DNA of 10,220 nt from Nitrospinota bacterium. Lineage in GTDB: Bacteria > UBA8248. Shown piece by piece: positions 1 to 10,220 of this stretch (the stretch's first letter is position 1; every line of letters begins with the position of its first letter). Location: NCBI GenBank assembly GCA_036231405.1, contig JAZAHK010000037.1:1-10220 (forward strand), written 5' to 3'. A program made the position numbers and the translations under genes. The notes below the pieces were generated by a model that worked only from the letters and a program-made list of their open reading frames with translations, was not told the DNA's origin and searched no databases.

Positions 1-2
1 AA

Positions 3-455
3 AAAAAATTAGAATTGTATAATACGAAGTTCAAACCACTTGCTGATAAATATGGTGTTACTATAAATCCCCCAGACAAGAACTGCAGAACTACTAATGC
101 CCATTTAGCAACTATTTATTCCCGGGAAAAGGGTAAATTAAAAGAGTATAGAAACAGGATTTATAAGGGACGATGGGTAGAAGACTTAGATATTGAAGAT
201 CCAAAGGTGCTAGTCAAACTTGGAGAAGAAGTTGGACTAGATAGTAAAGAAATTAAAAATGTAATTAATGAGAAACGATACTTATCTGTCTTACATAGCC
301 AAAGAGCACAAGGAAAAAGTATAGGGATTTTTGGAATACCATCGTTCGTGATAAGAGGGAAAATATTTTGGGGAGTTGATGTAATTGAAGAACTAAAAGA
401 AGAAATTGAGAAAGTAAAACAAAAGCTCATAGAAGAACAGGAAAAAGAAGATTGA
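3..455 (+). CDS. DsbA/FrnE-like (DSBA thioredoxin-fold, 2-hydroxychromene-2-carboxylate isomerase-like) protein, 5' truncated
   Basis: The frame is open back to the window edge (AAA AAA TTA GAA TTG...). The protein has the family-typical segments 'W.EDLDIEDPKVLVKLGEEVGLD' and 'GIFGIPSFVI.GKIFWGVD' (cis-Pro loop). The N-terminal CxxC-type site lies outside the window. Confidence 0.8.
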   Translation, partial: KKLELYNTKFKPLADKYGVTINPPDKNCRTTNAHLATIYSREKGKLKEYRNRIYKGRWVEDLDIEDPKVLVKLGEEVGLDSKEIKNVINEKRYLSVLHSQRAQGKSIGIFGIPSFVIRGKIFWGVDVIEELKEEIEKVKQKLIEEQEKED

Positions 456-857
456 TTACATTTTTTTTCTTGGTATATGGGCAATCGCTTCAATTTCGAC
501 GATGTCCTCTTGATTCAATGCAGAAACTTCAAGGATAGTTCTCGTTGGAAAATTTTTTCCAAAAAACTCTTCATATAGTTCGTTAATAACAGGTCTGATT
601 TTTTTCATATCTGTTACGTAAACGGTGGTGGAAACGATATCTTGCATACTTCCCCCATTACTCTCAACAATAGATTTCAAATTTAACATCGTCTGACGAG
701 AACGTTTTTCAATATCATATTCGACAAGTTGGTTGTTTTCGGGATTTATACCTCTTTGCCCAGAAATAAACAAAAGTTCTCCAACCTGACGTACCTGAAG
801 AAAAGGACCAGTGGGATTGGGAATAGAATCGTCGAAGAATTGATCATGTGCACTCAA
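456..857 (-). CDS. RidA/YjgF/YER057c/UK114 family protein (reactive enamine/imine deaminase)
   Basis: Motifs 'GPFLQV...LLFISGQ', 'INELYEEFF', 'FPTRT' (catalytic Arg) and 'VEIEAIA' (conserved Glu). TTG start lies 1 nt after the upstream stop, suggesting translational coupling. Confidence 0.92.
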   Translation of the reverse strand: MSAHDQFFDDSIPNPTGPFLQVRQVGELLFISGQRGINPENNQLVEYDIEKRSRQTMLNLKSIVESNGGSMQDIVSTTVYVTDMKKIRPVINELYEEFFGKNFPTRTILEVSALNQEDIVEIEAIAHIPRKKM

Positions 858-858
858 A

Positions 859-1110
859 TTAAGATACCTGTAAATCTCTTATTTTTTTTTTGCCTTTACT
901 AGGCAGTTCTTCAGGAAAAGTATTCTTCAACCATTGCTGAGCAAGAATAAGACTTGCTGTTTCGTCTTTTCCAGGAACAAAAGCAATGGATTCTTCAATG
1001 CGAGAACCATCTTCATTCAACATAAAGACATCTACTCCAGAACCATAAAGATCATCATTACGGGATTCTAAAGAATATTTAACACCATTGTTTTCTAACT
1101 CTTGAATCAT
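859..1110 (-). CDS. Hypothetical protein (83 aa)
   Basis: ATG is preceded by a strong RBS (AAGGAG). It sits co-directionally between the hydrolase and ridA-like genes and abuts the latter. No family recognised. Confidence 0.75.
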   Translation of the reverse strand: MIQELENNGVKYSLESRNDDLYGSGVDVFMLNEDGSRIEESIAFVPGKDETASLILAQQWLKNTFPEELPSKGKKKIRDLQVS

Positions 1111-1190
1111 GCATTCTCTCCTTTCCTATTAATCCACATCCAGAATTCTAACAAGGACAAAGATTAACATCAATCAAAAAGAATTGATCT

Positions 1191-2351
1191 TTAATGCATA
1201 AGATGATCCAGGAACCAATCAGCAATATAATTACTCGCCAGACCAAGATTATCGACTAAACAGTGTTGACTTCCTCCATTTTCAGAAGAAAAAACTTTGA
1301 GTTGTTTATCTATAGAACCACATTCCTCAAAAAGTCTGTGCGCCATTTCAATTGGAGCTATAGTATCCTCAATCCCATTCAAAATTAAAATCGGCATCGT
1401 AATATTTGAAGCCACCTCAGCCAAATTGTATTTTTTACACTTTTCAATGGCACTATCAACATCATCACAACCCATAAGAAAAGGCAATTGCCACATATGC
1501 GCAGATGTTTCCGTACCTCCTGCTTCGAGAATCTTTCTTCTTTTCACAACCACTTCATGGATATCAAAGCTACATCCCCAGGCAACACAAGCCGCAAACC
1601 TTTTTTCAAAAGCAGCTGCGCGAGGGGCATAATATCCCCCCATACTCATACCCATAATACCAATTCGATCCGGATCTACGTTTTCAATAGTAGAAACAAA
1701 ATTGTACGCAGCTGTTGCAGGTACTTCATAGTCGAATCGACTAGGGATTTTTCCAAGACGAAGGGTTTCTCCTTGACCAGGTCCATCAATACACAAACAC
1801 CCAATCCCCCGAGAATGTAGATCCAGTCCTGCCCAAAGAGTCGTAATTTCTTTACACGCATCTGCACCGTCAAAAAAAACTACTGCAGGAATTTTTTCTT
1901 TCTCAGTCTTTGGGGGAATCCAAAATGCGTATAAAGGACCTTCTTCATATTCGATTTCCACCTTTTCAAATCCAGTTATACGTAGTTTCATTCCTTTGTA
2001 AAATCTTGAAGCAACTTTTTTATATGATTCAAACTTTCTTGGATCCTCAGGAGGAATTAATTGTTCGGCGGTATAAAGATAAACAGCACTCCTAATAAAT
2101 GCTCCAGACGCTGTCACAGAGTGACCTGCTTTGAGTTCCCTTTCAGCACAATCTAGAACGAATTCAGACATCTCCTTCCATTCTTCGAACCAAACCTCAG
2201 AATCTCCAATATTATCTTTAAGTTTCTTTCCAATTTGATCAATTTCCCAGAGGGAACTACCACCAACACGGGCAAGATTCAAAATCCCACAAAGCCTATG
2301 TGACCAAAGATAATTGTCAGGGAAATACCGAAACCAATTAGCTCCCTGCAT
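1191..2351 (-). CDS. Alpha/beta hydrolase, 2,6-dihydropseudooxynicotine hydrolase/FrsA-like family
   Basis: Helical N-domain, 'FFDGADACKE', 'DGPGQGE', nucleophile elbow GMSMGGYYAPRAAAFEKRF, and a likely Asp (GIEDT) and His (QHCLVDN) completing the triad. RBS GGAG lies 5 nt before the ATG. Confidence 0.88.
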   Translation of the reverse strand: MQGANWFRYFPDNYLWSHRLCGILNLARVGGSSLWEIDQIGKKLKDNIGDSEVWFEEWKEMSEFVLDCAERELKAGHSVTASGAFIRSAVYLYTAEQLIPPEDPRKFESYKKVASRFYKGMKLRITGFEKVEIEYEEGPLYAFWIPPKTEKEKIPAVVFFDGADACKEITTLWAGLDLHSRGIGCLCIDGPGQGETLRLGKIPSRFDYEVPATAAYNFVSTIENVDPDRIGIMGMSMGGYYAPRAAAFEKRFAACVAWGCSFDIHEVVVKRRKILEAGGTETSAHMWQLPFLMGCDDVDSAIEKCKKYNLAEVASNITMPILILNGIEDTIAPIEMAHRLFEECGSIDKQLKVFSSENGGSQHCLVDNLGLASNYIADWFLDHLMH

Positions 2352-2416
2352 AAGTACTCCATAATTTAGGATTAAAACTAAAAATCAACAGAATTCTATA
2401 AATTTTTTATATATAT

Positions 2417-2444
2417 AAGTTAAAAAACTTCTCAAAACAGTCAA
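2417..2444 (-). promoter_or_regulatory. Candidate sigma70 promoter for the hydrolase operon
   Basis: The minus strand reads TTGACT-N16-TAACTT. The AT-rich context makes chance matches possible. Confidence 0.3.
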
Positions 2445-2457
2445 AAACAAGTACAAT
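2429..2457 (+). promoter_or_regulatory. Candidate sigma70 promoter for the MerT-like gene
   Basis: TTCTCA(2429-2434)-N17-TACAAT(2452-2457), about 50 nt upstream of ATG 2509. It overlaps the divergent promoter candidate. Confidence 0.35.
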
Positions 2458-2508
2458 CGAATTAGTTATAACCTACTGATGGTACAGAGAAAAAGGGTTC
2501 TTTGAAAG

Positions 2509-2799
2509 ATGAATAAAATTACAATTTTAAGTACTTTAGTATGGGGTTTTTTTAGACATACACTTTGTTGATGGCCCTCTGTTCTAACAGCTCTTGGTCT
2601 AGGAGCGACAACAGCAGGAGTTTTAGGAAGTGTATTAACTACACTCCAAGTGTATAGTTGGGTATTTTTAGTGATAGCAATACTATCTTTTTGCTGGACT
2701 TTCTGGAAAACGAGACATAACACTCACAAACAAAGAATTTTTGTCTATCTATCTGGGGCATTTATTTTCTTAGTGTTCATCTATAAATTCATTTCGTAA
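2509..2799 (+). CDS. MerT/MerF-like small membrane protein with in-frame TGA (putative selenocysteine, C20-U21)
   Basis: Manual translation: MNKITILSTLVWGFFRHTLC(U)WPSVLTALGLGATTAGVLGSVLTTLQVYSWVFLVIAILSFCWTFWKTRHNTHKQRIFVYLSGAFIFLVFIYKFIS* (96 aa). TGA at 2569-2571 occupies the second Cys position of a MerT-like 'CC.P..L.ALG..G' motif. There are about three hydrophobic segments. The ORF fills an otherwise unexplained gap, and a SECIS-like hairpin follows the TGA. Confidence 0.78.
2576..2618 (+). promoter_or_regulatory. Putative bacterial SECIS element
   Basis: Lower stem CCU/AGG (2576-78/2616-18) plus CUGUU/AACAG (2579-83/2610-14), then an internal loop, then upper stem GCUCUU/AGGAGC (2590-95/2601-06, one U-G pair). 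The apical loop GGUCU (2596-2600) starts 24 nt after the UGA. Confidence 0.72.
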
Positions 2800-2833
2800 A
2801 TGTTGAAATACACTAATTTAGAAAGCACATCTT

Positions 2834-3799
2834 TTAATCTATCATTTGTTTCATTTTCGTAACCATTTCATTGGTTACGTTTCCACCAGTCACTGTAGCA
2901 ACTGTAATCAAGTCAGTAGTTACTTTACCAGAAAGAAAAGCTGCAGAAGCAACTGCTCCTGCAGGTTCCGCCAAAATCTTACAGCGATACAAAATTTCAG
3001 AGAAGGCATTAGCAATCTCCACCTCACTAACCAAGACAATTTCATCAAGATATTTCTGTAGATGCCGGAATGGGAAAAGACCTGGACAAACTGCAGACAA
3101 ACCATCTGCAATAGTATCCCAATAATCTATCAAGGTTGGTTCTCCTTTTTGAAGAGAAACAAAAGCAGCGTTTGCTTGTTCTGGCTGCACTCCAATCACC
3201 TTTATTTTAGGATTTGTCTGTTTTATTGCTGAAGAAATCCCTGCAGCAACACCACCACTACTTACGGGAACCAGAACTAGTTGCACTGCTTCCATATCCT
3301 CTAGAATCTCAAGTCCAATAGTTCCATGTCCAACAGTTGCCATTGGTTCCTCCCATGTATTTATTGCAGTCATACCCCTATCTTTCGCTATTTTCTCAAC
3401 CATAGGTTGACGAGAAAGTGCATCCTCTCCACAAAAAACTACTTCGGCTCCATAGCCTCTTGTAGCTTCAATTTTATATGAACTTGCACGATTTAGCATT
3501 ACGACCACTATTTTCACACCCATACAAGAACCTGCATAAGCAAAAGCTTGTGCAAAATTTCCTGAAGAAGTCAAAACTACACCCTTTGAAAGTTGAACGC
3601 TAGATAGCGAGTTTAAAATTGAAACTGCTGCTCTAATTTTATATGCACCCGTAACCTGGAGATTTTCCGCCTTCAAAAAGAGTTTTTCTTTCCCAACATC
3701 AGAAGAATCAGAAGAGAATGGGAGGATCGGAGTTCTTCTTATCCAACTAGGGAAATGAGATCTTACTTTTTGAATATCTTTCAATTGCACGTAATTCAA
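2834..3799 (-). CDS. PLP-dependent threonine/serine dehydratase (fold type II, catalytic domain only; serine racemase/TdcB-like)
   Basis: Motifs 'LKAENLQVTGAYKIR' (PLP lysine), 'SSGN', 'GHGTIGLEI', 'TIADGL', 'EPAGA' and 'TGGN'. No C-terminal ACT regulatory domain. TTG start follows a purine-rich RBS (AAGGGAAG). Confidence 0.92.
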   Translation of the reverse strand: MNYVQLKDIQKVRSHFPSWIRRTPILPFSSDSSDVGKEKLFLKAENLQVTGAYKIRAAVSILNSLSSVQLSKGVVLTSSGNFAQAFAYAGSCMGVKIVVVMLNRASSYKIEATRGYGAEVVFCGEDALSRQPMVEKIAKDRGMTAINTWEEPMATVGHGTIGLEILEDMEAVQLVLVPVSSGGVAAGISSAIKQTNPKIKVIGVQPEQANAAFVSLQKGEPTLIDYWDTIADGLSAVCPGLFPFRHLQKYLDEIVLVSEVEIANAFSEILYRCKILAEPAGAVASAAFLSGKVTTDLITVATVTGGNVTNEMVTKMKQMID

Positions 3800-3899
3800 T
3801 TTCTTCCCTTGAATAAAAATGTAGTATCTAATATTTTCTATTTTATTTTATGCGAAACATTCCATTTAAGAAACACCTTTAAGCTAAGTGGGAATATTC

Positions 3900-4655
3900 A
3901 TGATTATACAATACGATAGTTCTCTACAAACTTATTCACTCAAGAGGATATTCTTTTTACTTTCCCTTTCTTTTCTTGTTATTTCTTGTTCGCACAATAA
4001 CGCGATTGAAACAGGATATATAAAGAGACACGGGGAAATAAATCCACATGGAGTCAAACTTAAAATAGGTGCTAATGTTCCATCTATAGTTTCTGACTTT
4101 AACTCTCTCTATGATACTTTTGGGACTATTCGCTCTAGAGGAAGACATACAGGATTAGATTTTAAAGCACCTATTGGACATCCTGTCTTAGCTGCATCTG
4201 ATGGAAGAGTAATCAGGGCACTTTATCTTTCTTGTGGAGGCAATGGTGTTTATTTAACTCACGGAAGAGATAAAAATGGTAACTACATCGGAACCGGGTA
4301 TACGCATTTAGACAAAATCCTCATAAAAAAAGGACAATTAGTAAAAAGAGGAGAAAAAATAGGACTTGTTGGCATTACTGGTTCATGTGCTAGCGGGCTT
4401 GTTCCTCATCTACACTTTTTAGTTTTCAAAGCACGAAAGAAGTATCATCTCGGTTGTGCTTACATAAATAAAAATCCTGAAAAGGATTTACCTTGCAAGG
4501 GGAGAAGAATAAATCCTCATAGGTTTTGGTATGATGGAAAAGGGGTTATGTCCTGTTTCGATAAAAACAAAAATTATTTGGAGAAGGTTCGCACTAAATT
4601 AACCATTCCAGTTGAGTGTGTTAAAAATTCCAAAAAAGAAACATACATTAAATAA
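3900..4655 (+). CDS. M23 family metallopeptidase, probable lipoprotein
   Basis: Zn ligand motifs HTGLD (HxxxD) and HLH, plus 'PVLAASDGRV', 'YTHL' and 'VKRGEKIGLVG.TG'. Hydrophobic signal ends in a lipobox-like VISC. ATG 3900 has GTGGGA upstream; GTG 3888 is an alternative start. Confidence 0.88.
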   Translation: MIIQYDSSLQTYSLKRIFFLLSLSFLVISCSHNNAIETGYIKRHGEINPHGVKLKIGANVPSIVSDFNSLYDTFGTIRSRGRHTGLDFKAPIGHPVLAASDGRVIRALYLSCGGNGVYLTHGRDKNGNYIGTGYTHLDKILIKKGQLVKRGEKIGLVGITGSCASGLVPHLHFLVFKARKKYHLGCAYINKNPEKDLPCKGRRINPHRFWYDGKGVMSCFDKNKNYLEKVRTKLTIPVECVKNSKKETYIK

Positions 4656-4669
4656 AATAGGAATTGAAA

Positions 4670-6472
4670 ATGAATCAAATTAGCTCTGAAAAAATAAGGA
4701 ATATTGCAATTATTGCACACGTCGATCACGGCAAGACGACTTTGGTTGACGCAATGCTATGGCAAACTGGAGTTTTCAGAGAAAATCAAAATGTTAGCGA
4801 ACGCGTCCTTGACTCTATGGATTTGGAGAGAGAAAAGGGAATAACAATTATGTCAAAGACGTGTTCGGTTCAATATAAAGATACTCTTATCAATATTGTG
4901 GACACTCCGGGACATGCAGATTTTGGAGGAGAAGTAGAACGTGTAATGTCAATGGTCGATGGGGTAATTCTATTGGTAGATGCCTATGAAGGCCCTCTTC
5001 CTCAAACCAAATTTGTAGTAGAGAAAGCAATGCAAGTAAACCTACCATTTATAATTGTTATCAATAAAGTTGACCGTTCTGACCAAAGGGCTACTCAAGT
5101 GCTTGACGAAATATACGACTTATTTATCGATTTAGATGTCTCAGAAGAAAAACTGAATTTTCCAGTTTTATACGCTATAGCAAAAGAAGGAAAAATCGGC
5201 ATGGAGTTAGATAAGATGATGGAAAACCTCGAACCATTATTCGAGACAATTATTTCAGAAGTGCCACCCCCACTTTCTGATTCTAGTAAACCTCTACAAA
5301 TGTTAATTTCAAGACTCGAATATGACAATTATTTGGGCAAACTTATAATAGGCCGTATCAAGAATGGATCAATGAAGGTAAGACAAAAAGCATTAATTCT
5401 TGCGAAAAACAATACAAAAACTACGCAAGAAATCACTAAACTCTTTACTTATCAGGGAATAAAACTTACAGAACAGAAAGAAGCATCTTTTGGAGATATT
5501 GTTGCTATCGCAGGATTTGATGAAGCAGAAATTGGAGACACACTAACTGACCTAGAATATCCCTCTGCTCTTCCAAGAATAGAAATTGATGACCCAACTA
5601 TTTCAATGACTTTTAGGATAAATGACACGCCGCTATCAGGAGAAGGAAAATTCTTAACTAGTCGTCAAATCAGAGATCGACTTCTACACGAGACAAAACA
5701 TAATGTCGCTATACAAATTCACGAAACCGATTCTACAGATACCCTGCGTGTTTCAGGGAGAGGATGCCTTCAATTATCTGTTCTAATAGAGCAACTCCGT
5801 AGAGAAGGATACGAATTAACAGTGGGCAGACCAAAAGTGATTACCAAAGATAGCGAAAATGGAAAACTTGAACCCATCGAAAAACTAATTGTTGAAGTGA
5901 AAGAAGAATATATAGGAACAATCACACAAAAATTGGGACAAAGAAAAGGTAAAATGAACAACATGAAAAAAATAACAAGTGAGGATACTAGACTAGAATT
6001 CATAATACCAAGCAGAGGATTGATTGGTTATCATAGCGAATTCATAACGGATACAAGAGGGACAGGAATATTAACACATCTTTTCCAAGGTTGGGATAAT
6101 TGGCAAGGAGATATTAAAAGTAGAAATACTGGCGCAATAATTGCGGATAGAGGAGGAAAATCTACAGCATATTCCATAGAAAATATTCAAGAAAGAGCGA
6201 CTATGTTTATACACCCTCAAGAGATTATTTACGAAGGGATGATTGTTGGAGAAAACACTAGGGAACAAGACATGTATGTAAATATCACGAAAGGGAAAAA
6301 ATTAACTAATATAAGAGCATCAAACTCAGATATCTCGACAAAAATCATACCTCCAAAAATTTTTAGTTTAGAACAGGCATTAGAATTCCTTAGAGATGGC
6401 GAATGCCTAGAAGTAACTCCAACCACATTCAGACTCAGAAAATCTGATCTTCGATCTCGAAAACATGCATAA
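4670..6472 (+). CDS. typA: Translational GTPase TypA/BipA
   Basis: Motifs '[18 protein letters not shown]', 'EKGITI', '[14 protein letters not shown]', NKVD, 'LRREGYE' and C-terminal 'KKLTNIR...LEQALEF...EVTP..FRLRK'. RBS AGGA lies 7 nt before ATG 4670 (the track start is TTG 4664). Confidence 0.97.
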
Positions 6473-6474
6473 AA

Positions 6475-9078
6475 TTACAACAGAGAATATGGATCTATAT
6501 CAACAATTAACCTTACATCCTTAGAAAATTTTTTTTGTTCAGAAAATGTGCGCCTAAATTTTAACACAAGCTGGTTTAATTTTTCGTGAGAAGACGACTT
6601 TATAAGAATATGATGCCTCCAATTTTTTCTTATCTTTGCAAAGACAGCGGGAGCGGGACCTAAAAATACTAGTTCGGAATCAATACTTCCTATCCTATCA
6701 CGTTTGACACCCAAGTCAGCTAAATAATTAGAAGACCAACTTGAGGCTAAAGCCACAAGTTCTTCGTTTTCTGACTCGAATCTAAACCTTAAAAGTTTTT
6801 TAAAAGGAGGAAATCCCAATAATTTTCTAGAAACGCTCTCCCTCTCATAAAATGAATTGAAATCATGAGATTTTGCATAGTTAATAACATAATTATCAGG
6901 TCTAAATGTCTGAATTATAACGTCTCCAGAAATTTGATCCCTTCCTGCTCTTCCTGCAACTTGAGTTAAGAGTTGAAAGGTCCTTTCTCCCGCCCTGAAA
7001 TCTGGAAGATTTAGCCCTACGTCAGCAACAAGAACTCCAACCAAAGTCAGATCTGGAAAGTCATGGCCTTTGCTGACCATTTGAGTTCCGATTAAGATAT
7101 CAATCTCTTTTCTTCTCATTGCAGAAAGAATGGCATCATAATCTCCGGCCTTTCTAACTGAATCCCTATCAAACCTCTTTATTCTTGCCTTATGGAAACG
7201 TGCACGTAGTGACTCCTCAACACGTTCCGTTCCTATCCCTAAATATGCGATTTCTTTACTTCCACAAAAATGACAATTCTCAGGAAGTTTAATACGAAAA
7301 TCACATAGATGACATCTAAGTTCATCTCCTCCATCACGATGGAATGTCAAAGACGTAGAACAATTCTCACATTGCACGCTTTCTCCACAATCTCTACAAA
7401 GAACTAAAGAAGAGAAGCCTCTTCTATTAAGAAACAGCAAAGTCTGTTCCCCACGTTCGAGTCTTTCGTAAATAGATTCCGATAATCTTCCACTTAAAAG
7501 TACTGGATTCCTTGGATCACCAACACTCTCTTTTCTTAAATCAACTATTTCTACTCTAGGTAATTTTTGTCCACTGGGTCGCGAACTTAATTCTTTCAGA
7601 TCATAATTGCCAATTTTAGAATTATAAAAACTCTCAAAAGAAGGGGTCGCGGAACCTAGGACTATAGGAACACCCATCTTATTTGCGCGATAAACTGCGA
7701 CATCTCTTGCATTATAACGAGGCAACTCTTCTTGTTTATAGGAAGAATCATGCTCCTCATCCATTACTATCAGACCCAAATCGGTCATAGGTGCGAAAAC
7801 TGCAGACCTTGTCCCAATAACTACTTTTGCCTTCGAACTACGTATCTTCAACCACTCTTCAGCTCTCTTCTTTTCGGAAAAAGCACTATGGAGACAAGCT
7901 ATAAGATTCCCAAATCGACTTCGAAATCTATCTAACAACTGTGGAGTCAACCCAATTTCTGGAACTAGGATAAGAGTAGATTTTTTTTCTTCTAATACAC
8001 GCCTAACCAGATGTAGATATACTTCAGTCTTTCCACTACCCGTAATACCATGCAATAGTGTGACGGAATGTCTTTTGGCCTCAATATCATTAGAAATAGA
8101 GGAAACAACTTCAAACTGTTCTTCAGTTAATTCTAATTCTTTGGAAGAAAAAAAATTATTTTCAACATTTTCTTCTTGACGTTCAATGTCATGAAAGTAC
8201 TCTATAATTTTTTTTTCATATAAACGAGCACAAACAGAACGAGCCCCTGGAAGTGAAGATTCCAACTTTGCTATTGAAACTTGATTTTCTTCAAAAATTT
8301 TATGCAGGACCTGAATTTGACGAAAAGCTCTTTTATCGAAAGAATTAATAATTTTTTTGTCCACTCCCTCTTTCAATCTTACAAATAAGATTTTCTTTTC
8401 AAGTGTTCCAGTAGATTGTTTTTTGAATTCTTCAATCAAGTTTGAGTTAGCGAGGCTTTTTAAGTGAGAAGCTATCTTATTCTGAAAATTTTCAGTTTTC
8501 TCTTTAGAAATACTTTCTTCTTTTTCTAAAACAGACGATAAAGAACTAAGAGTATAAGGTTTAGAGTGAAGTAATGAAGTAATTTTATCTTTGATAGATA
8601 AACTAGGAGATAATCCTGGTAAATTTCGAGTTTTACCGACTCCATGAAAAGATTCAACCCCTTGAGATGTAAGTCGAAAAAATCTTCTACTTTTTGATTC
8701 TTTCAATCCAGGGAGTGCAGCACGAATCATTTCACCCCACTCACAATGATAATAGAAGGAAGCCCAACGAGTAAGAGCCAACAACTCTTTTGTTAAAACT
8801 GCTTTTTCATCTAAAACATCTAAAACATTACGAATTTTTTCAGAAGTAATTACAGGAGAATGTTCCTCTTGAATTTTACTAACAACATATCCTGTAAGAT
8901 CTCGTTTACCAAAAGGAACTTTTACTCTGTACCCAAGAGTTAATGAAGGGAATTTTATAATATCAACACGATATGTTAAAGGACCTGGATAAGATACATT
9001 TAGCGCAACCTCTACATACGCTGAATGTGTATCTTTTGAATGATTAACGTCGAATTTTGATGGTTTACTTTTTTCCAA
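6475..9078 (-). CDS. priA: Primosomal protein N' (replication restart helicase)
   Basis: N-terminal 'RVKVPFG' 3'-binding domain, Walker A GITGSGKT, DEEH, SATPS, four CxxC Zn-knuckle pairs, 'GTQMVSKGHDFP', 'QVAGRAGR' and C-terminal 'VDIDP'. Confidence 0.97.
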   Translation of the reverse strand: MEKSKPSKFDVNHSKDTHSAYVEVALNVSYPGPLTYRVDIIKFPSLTLGYRVKVPFGKRDLTGYVVSKIQEEHSPVITSEKIRNVLDVLDEKAVLTKELLALTRWASFYYHCEWGEMIRAALPGLKESKSRRFFRLTSQGVESFHGVGKTRNLPGLSPSLSIKDKITSLLHSKPYTLSSLSSVLEKEESISKEKTENFQNKIASHLKSLANSNLIEEFKKQSTGTLEKKILFVRLKEGVDKKIINSFDKRAFRQIQVLHKIFEENQVSIAKLESSLPGARSVCARLYEKKIIEYFHDIERQEENVENNFFSSKELELTEEQFEVVSSISNDIEAKRHSVTLLHGITGSGKTEVYLHLVRRVLEEKKSTLILVPEIGLTPQLLDRFRSRFGNLIACLHSAFSEKKRAEEWLKIRSSKAKVVIGTRSAVFAPMTDLGLIVMDEEHDSSYKQEELPRYNARDVAVYRANKMGVPIVLGSATPSFESFYNSKIGNYDLKELSSRPSGQKLPRVEIVDLRKESVGDPRNPVLLSGRLSESIYERLERGEQTLLFLNRRGFSSLVLCRDCGESVQCENCSTSLTFHRDGGDELRCHLCDFRIKLPENCHFCGSKEIAYLGIGTERVEESLRARFHKARIKRFDRDSVRKAGDYDAILSAMRRKEIDILIGTQMVSKGHDFPDLTLVGVLVADVGLNLPDFRAGERTFQLLTQVAGRAGRDQISGDVIIQTFRPDNYVINYAKSHDFNSFYERESVSRKLLGFPPFKKLLRFRFESENEELVALASSWSSNYLADLGVKRDRIGSIDSELVFLGPAPAVFAKIRKNWRHHILIKSSSHEKLNQLVLKFRRTFSEQKKFSKDVRLIVDIDPYSLL

Positions 9079-9102
9079 AAATTACCCCATTGATTTATTA
9101 GT

Positions 9103-9131
9103 ATTATATAAAATAGAAAAAATCTTATCTA
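9103..9131 (-). promoter_or_regulatory. Candidate sigma70 promoter of priA
   Basis: The minus strand reads TAGATA(9131-9126)-N17-TATAAT(9108-9103), with a perfect -10. A GGGG RBS-like run precedes the TTG start. Confidence 0.5.
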
Positions 9132-9156
9132 TGGAAATTTCGCTTTCCACTAGATA
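9126..9156. repeat. Inverted repeat in divergent intergenic region (operator or hairpin)
   Basis: TATCTA-TGGAAA-(TTTCGC)-TTTCCA-C-TAGATA: 12 matched pairs with a single bulge. Confidence 0.6.
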
Positions 9157-9197
9157 TGTTTTACCGATCTTATAGACAAGATGACCTAGAAACTACG

Positions 9198-9226
9198 TTG
9201 ACCTTAGACAACTCTTCAGATAGTTT
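9198..9226 (+). promoter_or_regulatory. Candidate sigma70 promoter for the small ORF at 9265
   Basis: TTGACC(9198-9203)-N17-TAGTTT(9221-9226). Confidence 0.5.
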
Positions 9227-9264
9227 ATTACTTCTTTTGCATGTAAATTTAGAGGAACTCAACT

Positions 9265-9441
9265 ATGGACAATATACTTTATTTTGTAGGAGATGGTATA
9301 TGTTCGTTCTTAAATTCTGTCGGTGGAACAACAGTAAGCAATAAAATCAATTGTGGGGTAGATGATTACGATATTCGGCTTTTTACTTTAATAATTATGT
9401 TATCCTTACTATTTGCAAGTGGTTTCTTTTTCTTTAGCTGA
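9265..9441 (+). CDS. Small membrane protein (58 aa), not in the ORF track
   Basis: MDNILYFVGDGICSFLNSVGGTTVSNKINCGVDDYDIRLFTLIIMLSLLFASGFFFFS*. RBS AGAGGA lies 8 nt before the ATG, a promoter candidate lies upstream, and the C-terminus is a hydrophobic helix. Confidence 0.65.
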   Translation: MDNILYFVGDGICSFLNSVGGTTVSNKINCGVDDYDIRLFTLIIMLSLLFASGFFFFS

Positions 9442-9493
9442 GACAATGACTAATCTTTTATGATTTCATTAGAGATATAAAGGGGATAAATTA

Positions 9494-9826
9494 ATGAAAA
9501 GTGCTTTAGAAATTGCAATGCAAAAAACTGCTTCTATTGGACAAAAAGCACGAGAAGAACTAGAAAAATTAAGTCCTGAGGATCGAGAAGTTATTGAAAA
9601 AATAAAGAAAAAATATGACGCAAAAATTGCGGAGAAAGATGTCTTTTTTCAACAGGAAACAAACAAAATCAACTCTTCTATTCCTATAGGGACACCACAC
9701 GAACAGATTCCACCAGAAATTAGTCAGGCTTTGACAAAACTTAGGGAAAAATTCAACGAAGACCGTGCATCCTTAGAAGAAGAATGCGAAAAAGAAGTTG
9801 ATACTATAAAGAAGAAAAATTCTTAA
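9494..9826 (+). CDS. Hypothetical helical/coiled-coil protein
   Basis: RBS AAGGGG. The N-terminal 'MKSALEIAM.K' and 'KYDAKIAEK' segments resemble, from recall, an uncharacterised bacterial family. Charge-rich helical composition. Confidence 0.8.
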   Translation: MKSALEIAMQKTASIGQKAREELEKLSPEDREVIEKIKKKYDAKIAEKDVFFQQETNKINSSIPIGTPHEQIPPEISQALTKLREKFNEDRASLEEECEKEVDTIKKKNS

Positions 9827-10218
9827 ATATTAGAATGGCTCTGAGAACCATCAACATTCCAGCAAGCACCATGTACCAAACTTGCTTTAGGACTGACCAT
9901 AAAAGCAGCAACATTAGCAATTTCTTCAGGTCTACCGAAACGCTTTAGAGGAAGATCGCTGTCTATAAAACCTTTCAAACCATCATCAGAAGATAAAACT
10001 CTTTTTTCCCAACCACCACCTTTAAAAATGATGCTACCAGGAGCAATACAATTCACTCTAATATTATCTTCTGCAGTTTCCAACGCCAGAGCCTTCGAGA
10101 ATGAAATTAATGCTGCCTTTGACGCATTATAGGTCATTGAACCCTTGCTCTCTCTCCCATAAATAGAAGCAACATTCAGAATCGATCCACCATTCCCTCT
10201 TCTCATTTCAGAAACTGC
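9823..10218 (-). CDS. SDR family oxidoreductase (FabG-like), 5' truncated
   Basis: Motifs 'GSILNVAS', catalytic YNASK (YxxxK), 'IRVNCIAPG', 'PLKRFGRPEEIA' and 'VDG'. The frame is open to the window edge. Its stop overlaps the convergent gene's stop (TTAA). Confidence 0.92.
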   Translation of the reverse strand, partial: AVSEMRRGNGGSILNVASIYGRESKGSMTYNASKAALISFSKALALETAEDNIRVNCIAPGSIIFKGGGWEKRVLSSDDGLKGFIDSDLPLKRFGRPEEIANVAAFMVSPKASLVHGACWNVDGSQSHSNI

Positions 10219-10220
10219 AA

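Follow-up and report, generated by a model that had tools for sequence, protein, structure and literature searches.

Does the interrupted reading frame at positions 2509-2799 of contig JAZAHK010000037.1, from a Nitrospinota bacterium (NCBI GenBank assembly GCA_036231405.1), encode a selenoprotein, and what might such a protein do? The stretch of DNA analyzed here, hereafter referred to as the window, covers positions 1 to 10,220 of the forward strand of this contig, and an earlier note made from its letters alone had proposed that the frame hides a MerT/MerF-like membrane protein in which a Cys is directly followed by selenocysteine (Sec, U). Judging from sequence signals, the internal TGA almost certainly encodes Sec, and we regard it as highly probable that the frame is a real selenoprotein gene. 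The overall explanation that we favor, and consider reasonably probable, is that of a MerT-superfamily selenoprotein gene whose product would take part in a soft-metal relay, receiving the ion from a MerP-like partner. The coding sequence and its central feature are as follows.

2509..2799, plus strand: coding sequence of a predicted 96-residue MerT-like selenoprotein with Sec at codon 21, with orthologues in congeners and variation dominated by third codon positions.
2566..2571, plus strand: Cys20 (TGT) and predicted Sec21 (TGA), a vicinal pair that opens the long first hydrophobic helix and is followed by Trp-Pro.

The frame comprises 96 sense codons between ATG at 2509 and TAA at 2797-2799 on the plus strand (2509-2799), and its sole internal stop is the TGA of codon 21 (2569-2571), right behind the TGT of Cys20 (2566-2568), within the peptide TLC*WPSVLTALGLG; both the coordinates and the peptide agree with those first reported. 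When the window was read with TGA as Sec, no other convincing extended frame appeared. It had also been claimed that the open reading frame (ORF) track misses this frame and shows a shadow ORF on the opposite strand, and this was borne out: under translation table 11, only a 49-residue ORF (2650-2799) is called on the plus strand, together with an 85-residue shadow ORF (2466-2723) on the minus strand. A word-indexed search at near length in a collection of 5.8 billion proteins returned no full-length entry of the window protein, a blank that is expected if gene callers truncate such genes and that is no proof of isolation. In a representative library of 1.84 billion proteins, 388 matches were obtained at E <= 1e-3, and the top six are fragments starting just past the Sec position, the mark left when gene callers cut selenoprotein genes short, in agreement with the expectation that standard annotation drops the gene. 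After these fragments come full-length forms with a Cys-Cys pair, including one of 95 residues that has no second Cys pair.

The output of standard calling and the blank at near length are also what would be seen if the TGA were a true stop or had arisen through faulty sequencing or assembly, in which case the locus would be a pseudogene or non-coding and only the short downstream or opposite-strand ORF would be real. The comparison within the genus argues strongly against such a possibility. A six-frame search recovered the same frame, with TGA at the same codon, in all three other species of the genus (86-88% protein identity), and the TGA is therefore kept in 4/4 genus members. Variable sites among the four genes are distributed 18/4/43 over codon positions 1/2/3, and the 20 codons upstream of the TGA likewise evolve as coding sequence, with variable sites of 4/0/9 (9/13 at the third position). 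In nearly every pair of genes, synonymous changes exceed non-synonymous changes on both sides of the TGA, and therefore both halves are translated in this frame. In three DNA runs, each from a different study, contigs span 2569-2571 with zero differences, which excludes sequencing error. Homologues from other genera keep a TGA at the same pair, and Cys-Cys homologues are found at full length in the representative library, with a Cys-Cys MerT present in two same-family genomes as well. With the Sec machinery of the genome also present (see below), a true stop or an error is exceedingly unlikely.

A contig of 171 nucleotides (nt) from a metatranscriptome library spans 2490-2660 and retains the TGA. 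It differs from the window at 2539 and 2621, which by codon arithmetic result in Ile11 and Ala38, and both residues occur at these places in congeners. This contig gives a weak hint of expression, and carry-over of DNA into the library, which is possible, would count against even that.

The genome (2.09 Mb in 48 contigs, 92% complete, 36.8% G+C) has the genes for Sec synthesis and insertion that the proposal calls for. SelA (E 8e-148), SelB, via its winged-helix domain (E 1e-21), and SelD (E 3e-100) are all present, the last itself with one in-frame TGA, and a tRNA-Sec scores 75 bits against a gathering score of 47. As the genome is small and AT-rich, it may be asked whether TGA is instead read as Trp, Gly or Cys through a deviant code or a suppressor. 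TGA terminates 208 of the 1040 open frames of at least 300 codons in this genome, and is therefore an ordinary stop in a genome that is not recoded; moreover, every large gene of the window is intact under table 11, and the tRNA-Sec, selA and selB are dedicated to Sec. A deviant reading is thus very improbable.

Downstream of the TGA, a hairpin was found that may act as the Sec insertion sequence (SECIS), and its predicted parts are the following.

2590..2606, plus strand: putative SECIS core, with a 6-bp stem (GCUCUU/AGGAGC) and the loop GGUCU (2596-2600).
2573..2622, plus strand: possible extended lower stem, 2573-2583 with 2610-2622, predicted from minimum-free-energy folds only.

The loop begins 27 nt past the U of the UGA. 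The corresponding 29-nt stretch was compared among 17 homologues, taken from 12 genomes that range from 34 to 63% G+C. The apical loop is GGUCU in 14 of the 17 and AGUCU in the remaining 3, with the last four bases invariant, and its onset lies 24 or 27 nt past the first UGA throughout. A GGUC-type loop is also that of the Escherichia coli fdhF SECIS. For an 8-bp stem, 88% of the cells are paired, versus 36-57% after the 3' partner has been shifted by 1-3 columns, and the covariation of the stem (0.388) is reached by 0/500 shuffles (0.246 +/- 0.026). Compensatory changes are seen in three of the eight stem pairs. In particular, among 16 distinct rows the loop-adjacent pair is GC in 12, UA in 3 and AU in 1, with none unpaired, and another pair is CG in 7, UA in 5 and UG in 3, with one unpaired. 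Both of these varying pairs sit on third codon positions of the A-L/P-G-L-G-A motif; the changes are synonymous, and therefore conservation of the protein alone does not account for the stem. Some results speak against the hairpin: it overlaps a conserved peptide motif, and the protein explains part of its conservation; shuffled versions of the 65-nt region fold with an energy just as good (z = 0.05); and scanning 2400-2900 against Rfam at E <= 10 turned up no SECIS family and nothing better than chance. Since energy fails to single out the hairpin, it is conservation and covariation that carry the case for it. Conservation of the lower stem does not extend beyond the genus.

How widespread is this arrangement? 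A search of 51 genomes of the phylum gave 18 matches at E <= 1e-5, and 17 of them have a TGA inside the vicinal pair. The C-U form is found in the window genus and two other genera, the reverse U-C form in four genomes of one genus, a tandem TGA-TGA (U-U) form in six genomes, and a form with a lone U in one genome. Within the family, the largest genus has no match (0/23).

Some further observations concern these relatives. The U-U genes (L025, at G009:C1:458949-459296; L029; L034; L037; L038; and L021:48-383), from six genomes of the same family, carry one GGUCU or AGUCU hairpin each, 24 or 27 nt past the first UGA, which implies adjacent selenocysteines on a single SECIS. Tandem paralogues of MerT-like selenoproteins occur in four genomes (L043, in G022:C134, 6001-6972; G019:C94; G012:C214; G008:C1): in three genomes of one genus, a U-C form is followed about 280 nt downstream by a U-U form, and in G008 a U-U form is followed by a lone-U form. 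The longer MerT-like forms end in a K-P-x-N-P-C-A tail, and the window protein is without it. At two other loci (G011:C16:33001-34123 and G018:C255:1878-2447), an ordinary Cys-Cys MerT lies next to an HMA gene with two in-frame TGAs, indicating that a Cys-type MerT can pair with a Sec-type MerP-like protein; these two Cys-Cys MerT genes were weak matches in the family search.

To what family does the protein belong? Direct matches to curated models count against an assignment to MerT: the window protein scores 14.1 bits on Pfam MerT (PF02411), for which the gathering threshold is 32.9, and 16.7 bits on NCBIfam merT_RC607, a full-length match far under the cut-off of 130. A congener reaches 17.4 bits on the Pfam model. 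Intermediate sequences and profile-profile comparison point the other way. A homologue of 117 residues, from another family of the same class, is 41% identical to the window protein (E 6e-11), and on Pfam MerT this homologue and two more reach 43-46 bits, past its threshold. Using hhalign, a profile of the four genus sequences was compared with 20 Cys-Cys representatives drawn from the 1.84-billion library, all of which match Pfam MerT; the match (97.4%, E 1.2e-11) covers 88 columns and residues 2-93, and aligns Cys20-Sec21 with the Cys-Cys pair that the representatives carry. The Pro after the vicinal pair (C20-U21-W22-P23 in the window protein) is invariant in both alignments. On this evidence the window protein very likely belongs to the MerT superfamily.

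Hydropathy analysis gave three main hydrophobic stretches, in line with the two further transmembrane-like segments that had been noted after the TGA. AlphaFold2, run on a 9-row alignment, yielded an all-helical model (helices 3-20, 22-45, 50-68 and 73-95) with a break at residue 21; the model is weak, with a predicted local distance difference test (pLDDT) score of 57. The approximate transmembrane (TM) helices below are predicted from hydropathy and this low-confidence model.

2560..2640, plus strand: approximate first TM helix, residues ~18-44, with the C-U-W-P kink near its start.
2647..2706, plus strand: approximate second TM helix, residues ~47-66.
2737..2793, plus strand: approximate third TM helix, residues ~77-95.

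A basic loop with six K/R/H and no Cys follows helix 2 (residues 67-76), and the whole protein has zero acidic residues. A profile search against PDB sequences detected no solved relative at E <= 1. Of the two families first named, MerT stood, through the profile-profile match and the intermediates past the Pfam threshold, and MerF did not. MerF has two transmembrane helices with a vicinal Cys pair in each, and the window protein has three hydrophobic stretches and a single vicinal pair; no MerF model was among its NCBIfam and Pfam matches to E = 10.

Compared with MerT (PF02411; NF010314, NF033560), the window protein is likewise a small, predicted inner-membrane protein of three hydrophobic segments, with a vicinal pair and a Pro at the start of helix 1, a Gly-rich L-G-x-G thereafter, and a profile match over 88 of its 96 residues. 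It differs in having Sec for the second Cys and no second Cys pair, in its length (96 residues versus the 116 positions of the Pfam model), in scoring below the family cut-offs, and in being encoded outside any mer operon.

The genome also encodes a candidate partner. An unlinked gene (G000:C3:203027-203314, minus strand; L048:1480-1767) encodes a MerP-like HMA protein of 96 residues with a hydrophobic N-terminus and with two in-frame TGAs in its metal-binding loop, GMT-U-PSS-U-P. Both TGAs are kept in all four genus members, at 76-82% identity. The protein scores 39.4 bits on Pfam HMA, above the cut-off, and its top NCBIfam models, both below cut-off, are NF041115 ("UxxU_metal_bind metal-binding (seleno)protein"), the best, and MerP. 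Another MerT was not found in this genome.

In relatives, mer-type genes adjoin the MerT-like gene. In one complete genome (G009), the order is a UxxC glutaredoxin-like ORF, a LysW-like zinc ribbon, MerE (Pfam, 41.7 bits, above cut-off), a U-U MerT-like gene, a small membrane ORF and a MerR-family regulator. In a second genome (G006), a Sec-containing glutaredoxin and a zinc ribbon are followed by a C-U MerT-like gene, a MerP-like HMA gene with two in-frame TGAs, a metallochaperone of the CopZ N-terminal type (NF047645, 112 bits, above cut-off) and MerR. For both regulators, the top-scoring model is that of Hg-type MerR (TIGR02051), at 138-140 bits, slightly under the cut-off of 150.85, compared with 89-108 bits on the CueR, ZntR and CadR models.

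Two other features of these loci were observed. The glutaredoxin-like ORF has its TGA in a UxxC motif (L040:5149-5394 in G009; L042, within 5339-5662, in G006), matches Pfam Glutaredoxin with E 7.5e-18 when U is read as C, and in both genomes precedes the MerT-like gene by two or three genes, with the LysW-like zinc ribbon next. On the 3' side of MerT-like genes, a block of genes is conserved in three genomes of two genera (L040 7145-11610, L043 8641-12493, L044 7583-11430), consisting of a thioredoxin-reductase-like flavoprotein, a 4Fe-4S ferredoxin-like protein, a QRPTase-like protein and a DHH phosphoesterase; the block was annotated in two of the genomes and taken from ORF sizes in the third, and it may be plain synteny.

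What, then, might the protein do? In the mechanism that we propose, SelB and tRNA-Sec would decode UGA21, guided by the short GGUCU-loop hairpin inside the codons of the A-L-G-L-G motif, and the product would be an inner-membrane selenoprotein of 96 residues and three helices, belonging to the MerT superfamily. Cys20-Sec21 would stand at the kinked start of helix 1, the site of the Hg(II)-binding Cys-Cys pair of MerT, where the thiol/selenol pair may bind a soft metal ion. Hg(II) is the best-supported candidate because of the MerE and the Hg-type MerR in relatives. The ion would be handed over by the periplasmic di-Sec MerP-like protein encoded elsewhere in the same genome, and would then be moved across or into the membrane. 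For a soft-metal relay function of this kind, we see the balance of probability as slightly favorable.

Several findings weigh against this mechanism. None of the window gene's neighbors is metal-related. Searches of its own genome, at 92% completeness, for MerA above the cut-off, for a MerR DNA-binding domain and for an HgcA-like CdhD domain came up empty, and MerA above the cut-off was likewise found in none of the five relatives tested. The cytoplasmic loop that joins helices 2 and 3 of MerT carries a second Cys pair, whereas the window protein has cysteines at 20 and 62 only and none in loop 67-76. Since neither MerA nor MerR was found, nor a second cytoplasmic Cys pair, this is not a classical mer detoxification operon. 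Physiologically, it makes little sense to import Hg(II) with no reductase to follow, and the lack of such an enzyme opens the way to another metal, such as Cu(I), to sequestration, or to a redox role of the C-U pair. The possibility that the system is tied to mercury methylation was also considered, and it is unsupported, as no CdhD-domain HgcA was found in this 92% complete genome.

The first of these openings keeps the same gene and the same Sec decoding and changes the cargo: the relay might serve scavenging or trafficking of another thiophilic substrate, such as Cu(I), Cd or Zn at ocean trace levels, or selenium. In its favor, besides MerA and MerR not being found, the HMA partner scores about equally on the CopZ copper-chaperone and MerP models, and an Fe-S metallochaperone of the CopZ N-terminal type is encoded in the cluster of G006. 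The regulators adjacent in the two relatives argue for Hg instead, with 138-140 bits on Hg-type MerR against 94-102 on CueR and 101-108 on ZntR, and in one of these relatives a MerE homologue adjoins the MerT-like gene. We therefore regard another substrate as rather unlikely, and as the most credible of the competing explanations.

A second opening would make Cys-Sec a redox centre that forms a reversible selenenylsulfide, the protein being a small membrane thiol/selenol oxidoreductase or a redox sensor and no transporter. Vicinal C-U is a known redox motif. Mammalian thioredoxin reductase ends in Gly-Cys-Sec-Gly, which forms a reversible selenenylsulfide, and the window protein resembles it in having an adjacent Cys and Sec able to do the same; this enzyme is a soluble flavoenzyme with no relation in sequence or fold, and the likeness bears on the redox explanation only. 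The UxxC glutaredoxin-like selenoprotein and the thioredoxin-reductase-like flavoprotein near the gene in relatives would suit such a role, as would the lack of the second Cys pair by which MerT passes metal to the cytoplasm. The homology, however, is to a metal transporter family and to no oxidoreductase, the linked genes in relatives are also of metal type (MerE, MerP-like, MerR), and neither gene flanking the window gene is a redox partner. A redox role is thus quite doubtful, and the soft-metal relay remains the reading that we prefer.

Is the class new? The earlier note had suspected that it might not be wholly so, and rightly. In a 2007 paper, a "putative mercuric transport protein" appears among the known selenoprotein families (PMC1976440); the table of a 2022 review gives the same family under pfam02411 (PMC9312934); and a 2022 preprint describes a small CU-motif MerT-related group in NCBI's selenoprotein-annotation reference data (bioRxiv 10.1101/2022.07.06.499078). 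The window protein shares with these predicted proteins the superfamily, the C-U at the metal site and the fate of being missed or truncated by gene callers. It may be distinct from the published group, being short, divergent and, as far as searched, limited to one genus. MerT-type selenoproteins are thus already known, and the 96-residue form is a divergent, uncatalogued member, which may have a close published relative. NCBIfam also includes a model of a MerT/CopZ fusion-like heavy metal transport selenoprotein (NF045683), which joins MerT-like and HMA parts that in our genome are two separate selenoprotein genes; unlike it, the window protein is unfused and has no HMA domain and no listed match to the model, and its relatives score 15-35 bits against a cut-off of 375. 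Full-text searches of the literature found no experimental study of such proteins.

The immediate surroundings of the gene offer little further guidance. One promoter-like sequence lies upstream of it.

2429..2457, plus strand: weak sigma-70-like promoter match, TTCTCA-17-TACAAT, with 9/12 matches, about 50 nt 5' of the ATG.

Two such matches were found in the region and 2.7 are expected in shuffles, and the promoter is accordingly a possibility only. A scan of the gene's surroundings revealed no terminator. We consider it fairly probable that the window gene is monocistronic and functional. Its neighbors encode an alpha/beta hydrolase, a pyridoxal-phosphate-dependent threonine/serine dehydratase, an M23 peptidase, BipA and PriA. 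Two other ORFs of the window, of 83 residues at 859-1110 (minus strand) and of 110 residues at 9494-9826 (plus strand), have no Pfam match at E <= 0.01; with NCBIfam to E = 10, the former has no match and the latter chance-level matches only. A locus search with the single window protein returned only two same-genus contigs.

For annotation, the locus presents a gene that is invisible to standard callers and below all curated thresholds, yet conserved and apparently functional in a marine genus. Sec is rare in membrane transporters, and here it occurs in a lineage that has a Sec-bearing set of MerT-like, MerP-like and glutaredoxin proteins but no recognizable mercuric reductase, which raises the question of what role a selenol-based soft-metal relay plays in marine nitrite oxidizers. 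Tentatively, we suggest that marine Nitrospinaceae-like bacteria may run a selenium-based soft-metal relay without mercuric reductase, of which the window gene would be a minimal, unlinked version. The parts of such a relay might be a periplasmic U-x3-U HMA protein and C-U, U-C and even U-U MerT-like proteins served by one hairpin, joined in some genera by a UxxC glutaredoxin, MerE and an Hg-type MerR. If true, this would mean an unusually high-affinity capture or sequestration of Hg(II), or of another soft metal, at oceanic trace levels by nitrite oxidizers.

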